Assembly: GCA_964016885.1 (NCBI GenBank)
Contig: CAXHJY010000005.1
Coordinates: forward strand, 1 to 27,402
Source: Eledone cirrhosa
Taxonomy: Eukaryota
DNA: 27,402 nucleotides
Direction of reading: 5' to 3'
Shown here piece after piece: positions 8,931-23,071 of the stretch. The notes beneath the pieces were generated by a model that was not told the DNA's origin, searched no databases, and worked only from the letters and a program-made list of their open reading frames with translations. Both the position numbers and the translations under genes were made by a program. The number at the start of each line of letters is the position of its first letter. Position 1 is the stretch's first letter.

Positions 8931-9272
8931 ACGTTTATTCTTCTCCAGAATTTCCTTTAATTTCAGGAGAATAAAAGAAACACAAATTGTAGGTGGTGAA
9001 CCCTTTCAACATACTACTTTCGAAGAATTGAGGTTCAAATATTGTTCAAATAATAGTTTCTTCACAGATATACGAATTAGGATACTAATATATAGATTTT
9101 ATACTAAATATATGCGTAAACTTGCCTGTGTGGTAAAAAAGTTCCTATCACAATCACGGTTTTAAGTTGAATCCCACTGCGCAGCCTCTTCAGGAAATAA
9201 ACAGAGGCGATGTACAAGACCATACATCTTTACTCTCATCAGCTTTCATACCAGCAAAATGGCGTCGCCCCT

Positions 9273-9552
9273 TTTAAGTGATAGTACCATTTCAGAATGC
9301 TGGCTTATACTGGTATGTGTGTGTCTTTATTACATTTTTCTAGTCACTTCCATACTTCTCCTGCCCACCTCCTCTCTCAATATTTGCAATATTTCATCTG
9401 TCTGCCATCCACTCTGTGGATTCTCTCTCTGCCCATCACTGGCAGCTGCCCTCCGAAGCATTTTTACCCATCATTGTCATTGACAGCAGCTGTTCTAGCG
9501 TTGAATTCAAATATAAAATATACCCTCCCTTCGTCTCCAACAGACAACAATG

Positions 9553-9590
<38 letters not shown>

Positions 9591-9908
9591 TTAAGGGTAC
9601 TATTTATGGTTATGTATGCACTAAAACCTTTGATGGTAATATATTATATATACACAAACCCTAAATAGTGAGAGATAGTCATTAATTACTATCCTATTAC
9701 CAGTAAGATAAATAGCTCAATGTAATAACATCAGTTGTCACCCCACTGTTGATCAATATGCGCATATGTTTTATGTGTCTCTTGGGTTGAAAAGGAGGTC
9801 AAGTATGTTATAAATAGTTGCTCCGAAGAATCCAAACCTCGGTTTGGAGGAAACAATTGTAAGCAAATAAATGACTTAAACTGAACTTTGATTACTGTAA
9901 TCTCTCTC

Positions 9909-9942
<34 letters not shown>

Positions 9943-10165
9943 AACATTGTTGTCTCTGTTGGAGACGAAGGGAGGGTATGACAATGATGGGTAAAAATGC
10001 TTCGGAAGGCAGCTGCAAGTGATGAGCAGAGAGAATCCACAGAGTGGATGGCAGACAGATGAAATATTGAGAGGAGGAGGGCAGAAGTATGGAAGTGACT
10101 AGAAAAATGAAATAGACAGACATACCAGCAAGAGCCAGGATTCTGAAATGGTACTATCACTTAAA
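9273..10165. repeat. Fold-back element 1: inverted arms 9273-9554 and 9943-10165 with ~390-bp spacer
   Basis: tttaagtgatagtaccatttcagaat...cagacaacaatgtt is reverse-complemented as aacattgttgtctctg...attctgaaatggtactatcacttaaa; the left arm has an extra ~40 nt (about 9481-9520). Confidence 0.95.
9818..9866 (+). ncRNA. Minimal type I hammerhead ribozyme motif (U4C core variant)
   Basis: Stem I TTGCT/AGCAA; core CCGAAGA; stem II TCCAAAC(C)/(G)GTTTGGA closed by an A.G mismatch; GAAA (9850-9853); palindromic stem III ACAATTGT; triplet GUA (site 9861); TATAAATA directly upstream. Confidence 0.75.
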
Positions 10166-10170
10166 TCGGG

Positions 10171-10233
<63 letters not shown>

Positions 10234-10364
10234 GAGGTTATATTTAACTTGTTGGGATTCAACAAGCTTAAACATTTTTATAACTGATATAAAGCACTCA
10301 ACAGTTTAGTGGAGTAAATACACATTATATTAATAAATGGAAACTATATTTATAAAACCATATT

Positions 10365-10429
10365 TATTTTATTATACATATTTCAAGAGCAACCAAGGCA
10401 AATTATGGTGCGCTTTCATCAGATAAATA
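10365..10429 (-). ncRNA. Type I hammerhead ribozyme motif (left arm of fold-back 2)
   Basis: Minus strand: tatttat CTGATGA aagcgcacc ataatttgcctt ggttgctctt GAAA tatgtat A ataaaata. Intact core, stem II with one mismatch and one bulge, near-palindromic stem III, stem I TTTAT/ATAAA. Confidence 0.75.
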
Positions 10430-12232
10430 CAGATGTTTTATAAATAAATATTGATATACCCGGAAAAAAAGACAACCTTAACGGTTGGAGCTTCCTGGAT
10501 AGTGGATAGTACATTTATTGAGTGATACAACATTGAGTGAGTATGCAAATGAGTGTCCGAAAGGTTGAAAAGATGACGGTTTATTTAAATTAAACTGTTG
10601 GAAGAAGGTGATATGTAAGGGAGAGAAAAAAGAAAAAAAGAAAAGGAGAAAGATAGAAGAGGAAAGAAAGAACGATTATATATATTGAAGAGATGAGTTT
10701 CAAAGGATAAATATTCACAGCGTAAGTATATCTAAGTGAGAGAAGAAATGATAATAACGTGGAAGAATAATATTTATAATGCAGGATTCATTACGTTTTG
10801 ATTATAATACTTATGATAGGTTGAAAAATTAGATTAAAATTAAATTAAAATTAAAAAATTAGAAATCAAAATTAAAGATTAAAATTTACCTTAATATTAA
10901 AGATTTAATTTAATAATTTAATAGTAATAATTAGTTTAAATGTGTATGTTAAGGATTATAAATTATTTAAATTAATATATAGTATATTACATTAGAGCAA
11001 ATCTAGTATAGTTTATTTTATTAAAAGTTGTAAGTCAAAAATTTAAACATCCAAATAACTCTAAATTTATGAAAAATTTACGAGAGTTTACAAAGGAATA
11101 ACCACTTAGTTATATTATAAAAACAGTAAGGAAGTGTAAAGGAAGTTAGAAGTGTTTTTTTTTTTTTTTTTTTTTTTTTCCCCCGTTTCAAGAACTCAGA
11201 TCACTCTAAGGATTAAATGTTATAAAGTTGAAAAGTTAAAATTTTTTTTATCTTAAGAATATAATTAAATCATGAACCATATGTTATTTTATACGAAGTC
11301 ATAAATTTACTTGCTATAAAGTTAAAACATTTAAAAAAATGTATCTTAAGAATATATTTAAAGCATAAACCATAGGTTATTCCACATATATATAAAAAAC
11401 CTATATATAAAAATCATGTTTTTTCCACATGTATATAAACATTTGGATATATATATTAAAAAAGTTTGAAGATATAAAAACATTGGAAGGTATGAAAATA
11501 ATGGTTTATCTATATCTTTAATAAGTGGTTATTCCTTTGTAAACTCTCGTAAAATTTTCATAAATTTAGAATTATTTGGATGTTTAAATTTTTGACTTAC
11601 AACTTTTAATAAAATAAACTATACTAGATTTGCTTTAATGAAAAATACTATATATTTATTTAAATAATTTATAATCCTTAACATACACATTTAAACTAAT
11701 TATTAATATTAAATTAAATCTTTAATATTAAGGTAAATTTTAATCTTTAATTTTGATTTCTAATTTTTTAATTTTAATTTAATTTTAATTTAATTTTTCA
11801 ACCTATCATTATAAGTATTATAATCAAAACGTAATGAATCCTGCATTATAAATATTATTCTTCCACGTTATTCTCATTTCTTCTCTCACTTAGATATACT
11901 TACGCTGTGTATATTTATCCTTTGAAACGCATCTCTTCATGCACTTTATTTTCACTATCAATATATATAATCGTTCTTTCTTTACTCTTCTATCTTTCTC
12001 CTTTCTTTTTTTCTCTCTCCCTTACATATCACCTTCTTCCAACAGTTTAATTTAAATAAACCGTTATCTTTTCAACCTTTCGGACAATCATTTGCATACT
12101 CACTCATAATTTTGTATCACCCTCAATAAATGTACTATCTCCACTATCCAGGAAGCTCCAACAGTTAAGGTTGTTTTTTTTTTTTTTTTTTTTTTTTCGG
12201 GTATGTCAATATTTATTTATTAAACAAATCTG

Positions 12233-12297
12233 TATTTTATCTGATGAAAGCGCACCATAATTTGCCTTGGTTGCCTTTGAAATATGTATAATAAATA
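12233..12297 (+). ncRNA. Type I hammerhead ribozyme motif (right arm of fold-back 2)
   Basis: tattttat CTGATGA(12241-12247) aagcgcacc...ggttgccttt GAAA(12279-12282) tatgtat A(12290) ataaata. Confidence 0.7.
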
Positions 12298-12340
12298 AAT
12301 ATGGTTTTATAAATATAGTTTCCATTTATTAATATATTAC

Positions 12341-12376
<36 letters not shown>

Positions 12377-12522
12377 TGTTATACTTTGGGAGGGTCATGT
12401 TGCCAATAAGAAACACACGCACCAGATGCTTTCACTTCAATTTATTATAATAAATTTATAAATTTAGGAATTTATAAATTTCCGGTTGGTTGGTTCCACA
12501 ACCAGATGGTTGTTTATATATT

Positions 12523-12565
12523 ATCAAAGTTCTTTCGTCACACATTCTGTGACCTCTTCAGTAAC
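12523..12565 (-). ncRNA. Minimal hammerhead motif with extra nucleotide after CUGANGA (left arm of fold-back 3)
   Basis: Minus strand: gtta CTGAAGA g gtcaca gaatg tgtgac GAAA gaact t tgat. Confidence 0.65.
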
Positions 12566-13148
12566 TGGGGATTCTTTTCTTTGTTTTTGTGCCTCTCCTT
12601 TGTTCTGTCCTACGCCATCTTGTTTCTGTGTGAGTATTGTGTGCTCAGTCTGCGCATGCGCCACATCTGTGTGTTTATATTCGTTTATTTATTTGTTTAT
12701 TTACATGTCACAGGTTGGTTGTTTGTTCTATGTGCGTGTGTGTTTTCATTTTGTCCTTAATTGTAAGTTGTGATGTTGCTGTTCCACTCATGTTTTCTAT
12801 TTAATTTTGGTTGTAATTCTTTTATGTTTATTGCCTCTGATTTGTCTAAACGCAATGTTTAGACAAATCACAGAGGCAATAAACATAAAAGAATTACAAC
12901 CAAAATTAAATAGAAAACATGAGTGGAACAGCAACATCACAACTTACAATTAAGGACAAAATGAAAACACACACGCACATAGAACAAACAACCAACCTGT
13001 AACATGTAAATAAACAAATAGATAAACGAATATAAACAGACACCCGGATGTGGCGCATGCGCAGACTGAGCACACAACACTCACACAGAAACAAGATGGC
13101 GTAGGACAGAACAAAGGAGAGGCACAACAACAAAGAAAAGAATCCCCA

Positions 13149-13189
13149 GTCACTGAAGAGGTCACAGAATGTGACGAAAGAACTTTGAC
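13149..13189 (+). ncRNA. Minimal hammerhead motif with extra nucleotide after CUGANGA (right arm of fold-back 3)
   Basis: gtca CTGAAGA(13153-13159) g gtcaca gaa tgtgac GAAA(13176-13179) gaact t(13185) tgac. Stem I GTCA/TGAC, 6-bp stem II, triplet CUU. Confidence 0.7.
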
Positions 13190-14094
13190 AATATATAAAC
13201 CATCTGGTTGTGGAACCAACCAACCAACCAACCGGAAATTTATAAATTTATTATAATAAATTGAAGTAAATACAACTGGTGCGTGTGTTTCTTATTGGCA
13301 ACATGACCCTCCCAAAGTATAACAATATCGGTTTCAACACACGTTTTCAGATAAAGAATCTTGCTAAACAAATTCAGAAACGAAATATATATATATATAT
13401 ATTAGCGTGTGTGTGAAAGAGGCAACTAGTCGAAACAGCCGAGTTCGATCCTCTATTTACACGCACGCACGCATATATCTACACACGCACACACACACAC
13501 GTGTATATATATATATATATAAATAAAAACACATATACACGTGTATATGTTTTAAGCTCTACTTGTTTGGCAAATGACTTGATCTAAAACTGAAGCAATT
13601 ACCGCTGCGAAGATTTTTTGACACCTCAATAAATAAACGAAAAGTAAATGTTACAGATTTTGTCTATTTAAATGGCTAACACTGCTCTTAAATAGCGTAA
13701 TTGCTATATACATAAATATATACACATATATACATAAATACATACATTCTCTCTTTCTCTCTCTTCTCTCTGTGTGTGTGTGTGAAATTCTATACGATAG
13801 TTTCCGAATTAGCTGAATATAGATGTTTTAGGAAGTAAAGGCAGATGTAATCACACAACAAATATAATTAAACCTATAGAAAAAAAACCCCAGGTTTTAA
13901 ATCATTTTGAATTCCTTACACATGTTTCAATAGTTATACTTCAAATTTTTCGAATAATACTAGATGGGAATTCGTATAATCCAGATCTGTACATACAAGA
14001 TGATATAGAGATATTTGGACTTGTCCATCTTCAGAGGATTAAAACAACGTATTAAATTGAAACCGGAATATATCAGAAATTTTATTCCCGCCTC

Positions 14095-16142: not shown

Positions 16143-17000
16143 TTGTTCTTGTTCTTCTTGAGAGGGTCGATAGGGGGGAGGGGCAGTCCTCAAACACTCC
16201 TTCCAGCGGGTCCAGTCAAAGAACTGCCTCCAACTGATCCGGCTGGATCCCCAAAGCGAGACCAGCCGAGTTCATGGATGTTAGCTGACCAATTGCTTGG
16301 TCTACTCCTGGGTCTCATGTCGGCTGGTTTTGCTCGTAAAACCTGTTCGGCAATTCTTTCCAAAGGCATTCTAACCACATGCCCATAGTATCGGAGCCGT
16401 GATCTTTCAATTGGGAGAAGCAGCGGCTCTGTCTGGAGTGACTCTCTGATCTCCAAGCTACGCACTCTCTCGTGTAACGTTACTACGAAGACTTTTCAGA
16501 AGAACCCCAATTCGGCCGTTGTATTTTCGATCGTATTCTTTCTGTCAATACCGAAGATTGATGGCCATAGGTAAGAGTTGGCACGAATACCGAATTGAAG
16601 ATAGTTTTACTATTATTGCTTTCTCCCTTCTTCTGATAACCGAATGCTGAAGCTGGCGCATTACTGCACCAGTTCATGCAAATCTTGCACTTAATTCTGC
16701 CTCCTGCCTTCCATCACTCGTGAACACGGCCCCGAGATACTTGAACGTCTGTACTTGCGTCAGTGGAAATACATTCACATGTAGAGTGCACTGCGCAGGC
16801 TTCCTTGAGAGGATGTCTGTTTTCACAGCACTGATTTTCATTCCAGACGTGCAGCACTCTGCATCAAACCTATCGAGTGCAAGTCGTAAATCACCTTCTG
16901 TCGAGTTAAGTAACACCATGTCGTCTGCAAGTTCCAGCCGACTGATTTTACACCCGCTAGTCATGATACCACTTCCAGCACGGCTGCGTATGTTCATGTA
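16143..17000 (-). mobile_element. 5'-truncated RTE-clade LINE (Expander/Rex3-like), RT C-terminal half, frameshifted
   Basis: ORFs 16674-17033, 16483-16677 and 16190-16465: LELADDMVLL (RT F/YADD box), GMKISAVKT, FKYLG, FVPTLTYGH, RLRYYGHVVRMP, RPRSRP; (AAG/AAC)n-like tail near 16143-16160. Confidence 0.9.
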
Positions 17001-17002
17001 AA

Positions 17003-17095
17003 TAATTTTCTCCTTTTGGCACAAGGCCAGCAATTATCCCAGTGTATTACTGGTACTTTATTTTATCGACCCCGTAAGGAGGAAAGGCAGTTAAC
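17003..17095 (-). mobile_element. SINE family A, 3' part
   Basis: ggcacaaggccagcaattatcccagtgtattactggtactttattttatcgaccccgtaagga, nearly identical to the copy at 21187-21377. Confidence 0.85.
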
Positions 17096-18151: not shown

Positions 18152-18232
18152 TGTATGTGTGTCCAACCAGCCAAGAAACTAAGTAATTGAATAGGTAGAC
18201 TCTCTAGATATTTAATTCTTATCTAATTACAG

Positions 18233-18415
18233 ATGATCGATGCTTGCAACTCTTATCTGTCACCGGTCCCCAAAGTAAACAAGGTAAGGGTGTCGGTTTT
18301 TTATGAATCAAGATGTCCCTACAGTATCAAGTTCATATTAAATCAACTAACGATAACCTACAAGCGAATAAAAGAGATCATGGATGTTGACTTGGTACCA
18401 TTTGGAAACTCTCAT
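18233..18415 (+). CDS. IFI30: GILT/IFI30-like thiol reductase, coding exon 2 (thioredoxin-fold active site, CPYS)
   Basis: Acceptor ...ctaattacAG|ATG, donor CAT|GTAAGT at 18416. 183 nt: MIDACNSYLSPVPKVNKVRVSVFYESRCPYSIKFILNQLTITYKRIKEIMDVDLVPFGNSH, matching the GILT motifs V-x-V-x-V-F/Y-Y-E-S-x-C-P-x-S/C and LVPFGN. Confidence 0.95.
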
Positions 18416-22996: not shown

Positions 22997-23071
22997 ATAC
23001 GAAAGAATGATGGTAAAACGACGTTCACTTGCCAGCACGGACCATTGGAATGTGTAGCTAATGTTGTTGAG
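22997..23071 (+). CDS. IFI30: GILT/IFI30-like thiol reductase, coding exon 3 (signature CQHGxxECxxN)
   Basis: Pyrimidine-rich tract then atatAG|ATA; 75 nt IRKNDGKTTFTCQHGPLECVANVVE; donor GAG|GTATAC at 23072. Not in the ORF track because it is short. Confidence 0.95.

Follow-up and report, generated by a model that had tools for sequence, protein, structure and literature searches.

Among described retroelements, the closest to the locus examined here are the Penelope-like elements (PLEs). Features reported for PLEs include inverted 5'-truncated copies, one-sided tails and a bias towards (TA)n targets (PMC8557442), head-to-head junctions (PMC3846280), hammerhead ribozymes paired across the two strands at spacings of 100-700 bp (PMC4209133) and two internal start sites that delimit the tail (PMC11167929). 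An octopus Hydra element carries a hammerhead, and Penelope-13_HM has an inverted 5' copy with hammerheads on both strands (PMC8557442 supplement); in Octopus vulgaris, Penelope families were active recently (PMC13282606). One PLE clade, Naiad, is described as lacking canonical hammerheads, though some of its members have cores that fit no descriptor (PMC8557442). Hammerheads can be written as three blocks, C (CUGANGA), G (GAAA) and S (the cleavage site, U-H), which follow the order C-G-S in type I. The order S-G-C is non-circular, being no circular permutation of types I-III, and no convincing non-circular hammerhead was reported from the genome of a known organism (Eckert 2023, PMC10085705). 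We analyzed a 27,402-nucleotide stretch of the cephalopod Eledone cirrhosa (contig CAXHJY010000005.1; hereafter the window), in which an earlier note had described a cluster of fold-back elements with hammerheads at 9204..13328. One repeat of this cluster, which we call family 1, carries a hammerhead-like motif in S-G-C order, and the same order recurs at the ends of Naiads.

In our reading, to which we assign a probability of roughly 0.6, Naiads and their non-coding derivatives use non-circularly permuted hammerheads: S-G-C in marine animals, among them cephalopods and cnidarians, and C-S-G in nematodes. These ribozymes would thereby have a genomic home, with thousands of copies per genome, and the stem-II-less S-G-C form would cleave as a block-swapped dimer. 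As judged from sequence, the S-G-C motif in and around Naiads very probably is a real conserved structure, and it probably self-cleaves. It also seems fairly probable that the cluster consists of three autonomous PLE families and an older, likely Naiad-derived repeat, whose S-G-C motif is predicted to cut when intact.

The non-coding family-1 repeat measures about 555 bp (2,560 candidates, 78-86% identical). Its copies are monomers or partial tandems, and their 3' ends fall at either of two points, at microsatellites. Its blocks begin with U-H between strands of stems III and I, continue with GAAA and the stem III partner, and end with the stem I partner and CUGAUGA. Across 39 copies the canonical letter was the commonest in all 11 core columns; the core was fully intact in 16/39, and 9/39 kept the core together with both stems. 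The copy in the window (Table 1) is predicted to be dead because two GAAA bases are changed, and it fails the general descriptor. We class the family-1 motif, by its sequence, as a putative variant working like SGC and not as HRIMA-1.

Two other interpretations of this motif were considered and rejected. The earlier note had listed 9204-9250 as truncated. It is not a truncated type I hammerhead: the CUGAUGA there is preceded, not followed, by the mutated GAAA block and the cleavage-site block, and among 30 family-1 copies 20 units bear CUGANGA, in no case with stem II and GAAA downstream of it. A simple inverted duplication does not account for the complementarity either, as the two complementary pairs are crossed rather than nested and recur with other sequences.

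No sequence common to 30 family-1 copies extended beyond the ~555-bp unit, and the ORF (open reading frame) that characterizes Naiads was not found there. Nor is family 1 a retrozyme in the sense of tandem non-coding units with a type I hammerhead: partial tandems exist, and the motif is S-G-C. Family 1 is likely a non-autonomous Naiad derivative.

The pattern used to search the 3.0-Gb genome specified the core and four pairs of stem III and nothing else. It gave 301 matches, compared to 26 for the reversed control; the 301 overstate the S-G-C total because one unrelated repeat without stem I pairing supplies part of them. That repeat may resemble RTE-type ends. Stem I was assessed in 70 loci, comprising 30 that were returned and 40 hand-picked for diversity from 100 listed, some repeated. 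At least five of its six pairs were present in 38 of 63 distinct motifs when read in register, in 0-10 when read in slid registers, and in 3/30 for the control stem III. Stem I was present in 16 of 18 candidates chosen without regard to it, many of them related copies. A MAFFT alignment of 18 motifs lost the stem I register, and pairs were therefore counted on motif-anchored columns. A general descriptor recovered 67 distinct S-G-C motifs in 1.26 Mb of loci (reversed, 0), including families in unrelated flanks with differing stem I and stem III sequences. The 53 motifs with stem I fell into nine clusters, one of them doubtful, and pairing across families reached the same level in 4.9%. Single-strand folding of S-G-C copies, a method that cannot show a pseudoknot, gave no significant z-score. 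Seven additional loci, in flanks fetched otherwise, contained more families of short TA-flanked S-G-C repeats, and these suggest that such repeats are very common in this genome.

Naiad ends were examined in two collections. The last 330-430 nt of 53 of the 54 consensus sequences in Craig 2021 (File S5) were read by eye. An S-G-C motif was seen in eight of these 3' ends (Naiad_Obim, _Ovul, _Esco, _Amil, _Aacu, _Anas, Naiad-2_Movir and Naiad-3_Chem) and a C-S-G motif in six, all from nematodes (Naiad-1, -2 and -3_Nbra, _Hcon, _Hpol and _Asuum). By eye, the six nematode ends have three stems (I-III) plus a helix of 6-16 bp that joins stems I and II. Neither order was recognized by eye in the other 39. 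Bivalve and hemichordate Naiads (Craig 2021 File S5; L394) share a different terminal motif.

The second collection was assembled with a Naiad remnant of the E. cirrhosa genome, and the best 80 of 150 Naiad-encoding metagenome contigs were scanned for all six block orders on both strands, with a reversed control. The sense strand held S-G-C motifs in 11 of the 80 contigs, nine in the 3' untranslated region (UTR) and two in upstream regions, and a C-S-G motif in the 3' UTR of one. No type I, II or III hammerhead was found in any 3' UTR of these 80, and five weak matches of mixed order lay inside ORFs or upstream. An N-terminal endonuclease motif was visible in 10 of the 12 contigs with S-G-C or C-S-G; in the other two the longest frame starts later. 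The predicted arrangement of N-terminal GIY-YIG, CxC and C-terminal reverse transcriptase (RT) identifies these contigs as Naiads. Rfam at its gathering score reported nothing in 20 Naiad contigs.

The motif-bearing Naiad proteins are 25-73% identical, and two-sided changes were observed at all six stem I positions and at the three scored stem III positions. Since stems I and III were selection criteria, it is the variety of these pairs and not their number that counts as evidence. The distal extension of stem III was not used in selection and averaged 7.5 bp, compared to 4.8 bp when strands were cross-paired. In L348, the C-S-G contig, stem I scored 5 bp, stem II 5 bp and stem III 8 bp. A second metagenome contig has the C-S-G order interrupted by the contig end, and two more Naiad 3' UTRs resemble S-G-C slightly below the scan thresholds.

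Several results weigh against our reading. Both stem II and the helix that links stems I and II were needed for a tested SGC-3 ribozyme to cleave (PMC10085705), and neither was supported in 17 S-G-C motifs, in which stem II averaged 0.9 bp (1.4 cross-paired) and the joining helix 4.35 bp (4.49 cross-paired). The family-1 core was conserved no better than its flanks (0.904 vs 0.910, 39 copies), and the family-5 core only marginally better (0.95 vs 0.91, p=0.06). When the stem III extension was tested earlier by a looser criterion, motifs and control were poorly separated (28/53 at 6 bp or more vs 24%). Most Naiad contigs had no hammerhead (10 of the 62 with at least 200 nt after the ORF passed); controls in these contigs gave 0-3 S-G-C matches when reversed, depending on the threshold, and 0-1 on the antisense strand. 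The S-G-C repeats examined in the E. cirrhosa genome are short and non-coding, with no ORF attached to any of them. In the two long Naiad remnants, decay of the 3' UTRs has gone too far for the motif to be visible.

If the motif cleaves, S-G-C would stand in for the type I hammerhead of other PLEs by cutting transcripts that are tandem or read-through. Since stem II is 0-1 bp long and the lengthened stem III passes almost without a break into stem I, folding is most likely assisted. Help could come from a block-swapped dimer of tandem units, in which block C of one unit would complete the core of the next, or from the protein of the element. Lunse et al. are said to have described dimer dependence of PLE hammerheads in 2017. 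Such dependence has been reported for these ribozymes elsewhere (PMC4209133).

The missing stem II and joining helix also favor a different explanation, that S-G-C is a conserved hammerhead-derived structure that no longer cuts and provides the Naiad protein with a signal for binding or priming. The same can be said of position 10.1, which varies freely in the 17 motifs, and of the finding that hammerhead cleavage is dispensable for in vitro insertion of Poseidon, a PLE of another clade (PMC11167929). We nevertheless consider loss of cleavage fairly unlikely. The full core (CUGANGA, GAAA and U-H), which was part of what the search required, stands in exact register across Naiads as divergent as those above, and both the four helices seen in the nematode C-S-G ends and the stem lengths of L348 argue for a working ribozyme. 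A separate question is whether family 1, while bearing S-G-C, owes its mobilization not to a Naiad but to a different PLE, for instance one of the abundant Hydra or Neptune types. Naiads are rare in this genome (4 motif matches, remnants decayed) compared to thousands of S-G-C candidate loci, and (TA)n is used by all of these clades. The exact Naiad_Ovul-type motif was absent from the genome; one Naiad peptide pattern had 0 matches in it, and another found C-terminal-endonuclease families only, in the 10 of 21 loci that were read. Upstream of 40 hand-picked S-G-C matches, no PLE ORF belonging to the repeat was found within 4.5 kb. Against such mobilization, S-G-C was seen beside Naiad ORFs, whereas the Hydra and Neptune/Nematis families of this genome carry type I hammerheads in the examined set. 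Moreover, the family-5 motif resembles the Naiad_Ovul 3' end by eye, and family-1 copies are old by their identity, as cephalopod Naiads are said to be (PMC8557442). We regard mobilization by another PLE as unlikely and retain a Naiad origin for family 1 as the likely one.

The remainder of the cluster contains hammerheads of the ordinary kind. As the earlier note had proposed, five complete motifs are present, and these were the sole matches of the type I descriptor in the whole window (Table 1). Within 9101-13400 the descriptor matched five times in the real sequence and not once in any of 300 dinucleotide shuffles. All five have CUGANGA, GAAA and U-H in the order C-G-S with stems I-III (CCGAAGA in family 4), with stem III short or palindromic, and on this sequence evidence we identify them as predicted type I hammerheads. 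The Rfam scan of the window (E<=5) missed all five, with no ribozyme family among its 55 matches. Low core conservation would have spoken against these motifs, but in diverged relatives the cores were kept better than their flanks: 99% vs 83% in 27 relatives of family 2, 97% vs 82% in 6 of family 4 and 96% vs 89% in 4 of family 3. In single-strand folding, only the motif at 9818 stood out among the type I motifs (z=-3.05).

The three inverted repeats and their (TA)n spacers are present as the note had described, with arm identities of 85%, 90% and 92% for fold-backs 1, 2 and 3, and the motifs in fold-backs 2 and 3 do point outward. The view of ribozyme-bearing, Penelope-type retroelement ends gathered at TA microsatellites was also correct: the cluster is a heap of retroelement 3' ends at such sites. 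Three autonomous PLE families (families 2, 3 and 4) account for fold-backs 2 and 3 and for the insert in fold-back 1, all of which are inverted copies at (TA)n that lack their 5' parts. First-look candidates numbered 1,864 for family 2, 2,431 for the family-3 arm and 1,555 for family 4; these totals are not copy numbers.

Table 1. Features of the fold-back cluster and the nearest host exon (window positions; pLTR, pseudo-long terminal repeat).
Feature	Position	Strand	Remarks
Inverted upstream segment of family-1 repeat with decayed S-G-C motif	9192-9306	-	orientation opposite to adjoining 9307-9553
Block C: stem I second strand (5/6 pairs) and CUGAUGA	9236-9248	-	CUGAUGA at 9242-9236
Block G: GAAA and stem III 5' strand	9259-9266	-	two of four GAAA bases changed
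Block S: stem III 3' strand, predicted cleavage nucleotide A17, stem I first strand	9279-9290	-	9290-9286, 9285 and 9284-9279, respectively
Family-1 3' part, left arm of fold-back 1	9307-9553	+	ends at (TA)n
(TA)17 target tract	9554-9587		
Family-4 (Hydra-type PLE) tail, inverted	9588-9738	-	lies between pLTR end and ORF start in full-length copies
Family-4 3' pLTR end	9736-9905	+	hammerhead 9818-9866 with core CCGAAGA; cleavage predicted after 9861
Second piece of family 1, forming the right arm of fold-back 1	9943-10170	-	same internal inversion; keeps block S alone (10148-10159 read on +) before (TA)n
Family-2 (Hydra-type PLE) 3' UTR, 5'-truncated	10231-11519	-	family order, 11519 to 10231; hammerhead 10427-10368; ~85-nt tail 10314-10231 ends at (TA)n
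Family-2 3' end, inverted second copy	11522-12345	+	hammerhead 12236-12295; no tail; ends at (TA)n
Family-3 (Neptune/Nematis-type PLE) 3' end, inverted	12373-12848	-	hammerhead 12565-12523; no tail
Family-3 3' end	12852-13383	+	last 33 codons of GIY-YIG ORF 12852-12953; hammerhead 13149-13189; 55-nt tail 13329-13383 followed by (TA)n
Coding exon of GILT, the host gene nearest the cluster	18232-18413	+	Pfam PF03227 E=1.2e-11; splice signals visible

A search with each arm recovered Penelope RT and GIY-YIG ORFs upstream of families 2, 3 and 4. Other copies of family 2 continue through ~0.6 kb of further UTR into an ORF ending in GIY-YIG (CxCX5C, no CCHH, CxxC/CxH). Those of family 3 lead into an ORF with RT, DKSG, a CX4CxxC linker and, at its C terminus, a GIY-YIG of the CCHH type, which Pfam matched at E=0.0022, short of its curated cut-off. 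Motifs place family 3 with the Neptune/Nematis-type PLEs, and the short linker would point to Nematis. Full-length copies of family 4 have direct pLTRs 4.3 kb apart and frames of 700-770 codons. The family is very young, its 165-nt pLTR end being 100% identical in 32 of 40 scored copies. The hammerhead of family 4 has C for U at core position 4, as do those of relatives 74-84% identical. Pfam did not recognize the ORFs of families 2 and 4. As read in their translations, both have a C-terminal GIY-YIG, a CxCX5C linker, no CCHH, and CxxC and CxH around conserved E and N, a motif set that marks them as putative Hydra-clade PLEs; family 4 also has DKT, and RWR rather than RWK, in a part of the ORF that was not recovered for family 2. 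At least two more PLE families with a C-terminal endonuclease and long linkers were noted elsewhere in the genome, as was another Hydra-type ORF in tandem.

The hammerhead at 9818 is real and belongs to family 4, a separate fourth family inserted centrally in fold-back 1, where its tail, inverted, runs into a short pLTR end in direct orientation. The earlier note had seen no RT or endonuclease ORF at the cluster; of the fold-backs, the first alone is non-coding. Fold-back 3 retains the end of a GIY-YIG ORF, mirrored on its left arm; it carries its tail on the right end alone, and both of its ends abut (TA)n. The main arms of fold-back 1 face each other with their 3' ends inward and thus do not form the head-to-head palindrome that had been described. 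This orientation and the common internal inversion, unseen in 28 other loci, suggest that a local duplication is likely.

Insertion layouts were surveyed in 82 other copies of families 2-4, of which 25 ran off the fetched locus and 57 had a visible 5' junction. Inversions at the 5' end were present in 23 of the 57 (8 of them query-selected), and five copies were full palindromes, each arm bearing a hammerhead. The tail was found at exactly one end in 15 of the 16 copies with both element ends visible (8 query-selected). Mixed clusters were frequent: of 21 stretches retrieved with one family, 8 contained the end of another as well, two of the eight being the same place. These copies show the hallmarks of PLE insertion, namely 5' truncation, an inverted 5' copy, a one-end tail and a microsatellite target, with two alternative 3' ends per family. 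Many insertions, noted at 14 loci, had only an inverted tail at the 5' end, with no overlap with the direct part. Tail-only inversions fit two primers on one RNA at both known start sites, whereas an overlapping palindrome calls for another pass or another template. PLE biochemistry suggests that the GIY-YIG enzyme would nick both strands of (TA)n. Reverse transcription may then begin at either end point, that of the pLTR or that of the tail, and head-to-head joining of two cDNAs would leave a fold-back with the tail on one side. Families would nest because the flanking (TA)n stays a target.

The fold-backs could, in principle, be artefacts of assembly, as they lie on a small unplaced contig: the window is the complete 27.4-kb contig and ends in 1.2 kb of (TA)n. 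We consider this very improbable, given that the arms diverge by 8-15%, indels included, that every arm stops at one of the two natural end points of its family, and that identical layouts are present on chromosome-scale contigs. The first view of the locus, an undescribed class of non-autonomous elements inserting as head-to-head palindromes, was prompted by two clean palindromes side by side with hammerheads facing outward. It is contradicted for fold-backs 2 and 3, whose arms are the 3' ends of ORF-bearing families; indeed, three of the four families in the cluster extend upstream into RT and GIY-YIG ORFs elsewhere in the genome. The palindrome is not the usual mode of insertion, at 5/57 copies, and the layout is in print for PLEs generally and for Hydra and octopus elements. 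We therefore regard a new class as scarcely credible, and most of the cluster as ordinary debris of known Penelope-like elements.

The surroundings of the cluster were also annotated. A second GILT exon was found near 23030; upstream of 18232, neither a signal-peptide scan nor a homologue search found one, which leaves the location in GILT intron 1, given by the earlier note, a putative one. For one ORF, a close named homologue comes from Argonauta. A decayed RT fragment of another non-LTR (long terminal repeat) element lies at 16190-17033 on the minus strand (Pfam RVT_1, E=5.5e-5). The degenerate (TA)n array that closes the contig occupies 26189-27401.

By itself, the fold-back cluster is an ordinary example of Penelope-type insertion with a layout already known; the permuted hammerhead in and around Naiads appears to be new. 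A link between Naiads and permuted hammerheads was not found in the literature covered, which left out subscription papers, preprint supplements and most Eckert alignment files; the available parts of PMC13725137 and bioRxiv 10.64898/2026.07.22.740005 draw no such link. It would join two loose ends, the Naiad cores that defied descriptors (Craig 2021) and the non-circular hammerheads without a genome (Eckert 2023), and, if true, would explain the apparent lack of hammerheads in Naiads. Should the motif cleave, a widespread clade of invertebrate retroelements would process its RNA by pseudoknotted hammerheads; searches for types I-III and Rfam would miss such ribozymes, and animal ribozyme counts would be too low. 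The many diverged natural copies offer material for asking how a hammerhead nearly without stem II works and whether tandems are needed.

Compared with described systems, families 2 and 4 resemble the Hydra-clade PLEs in their GIY-YIG without CCHH, CxCX5C, CxxC/CxH, type I hammerhead and (TA)n targets (PMC8557442). They are longer than these comparators (family 4, ~4.3 kb; family-2 3' UTR, ~1.7 kb), family 4 differs in having C at core position 4, and both are distinct from Hydra-1_Obim, whose hammerhead sequences are unlike theirs. Family 3 shares with Neptune/Nematis PLEs a DKG-type motif, the CX2-5CxxC linker (CX4CxxC here), the C-terminal CCHH GIY-YIG and a minimal type I hammerhead. Family 1 is like the animal non-LTR retrozymes of Li, Clavereau & Pollet 2026 (bioRxiv 10.64898/2026.07.22.740005) in being non-coding, in its monomers and partial tandems, and in its ribozyme motif and PLE-like ends; those elements are defined by type I hammerheads, whereas family 1 has S-G-C. 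With Naiads it shares (TA)n targeting, partial tandems, an optional tail, 5' inversions and S-G-C in untranslated ends, and it differs in having no ORF (PMC8557442). Its motif is closest to the type-SGC/CSG hammerheads, with which it has in common the S-G-C order, a full core, pseudoknotted crossing stems I and III and a short linker from stem I to GAAA. It departs from type-SGC in its place, at retroelement 3' ends in an animal genome, and in its structure, where neither stem II nor the helix between it and stem I is supported and a distal extension of stem III covaries (PMC10085705).

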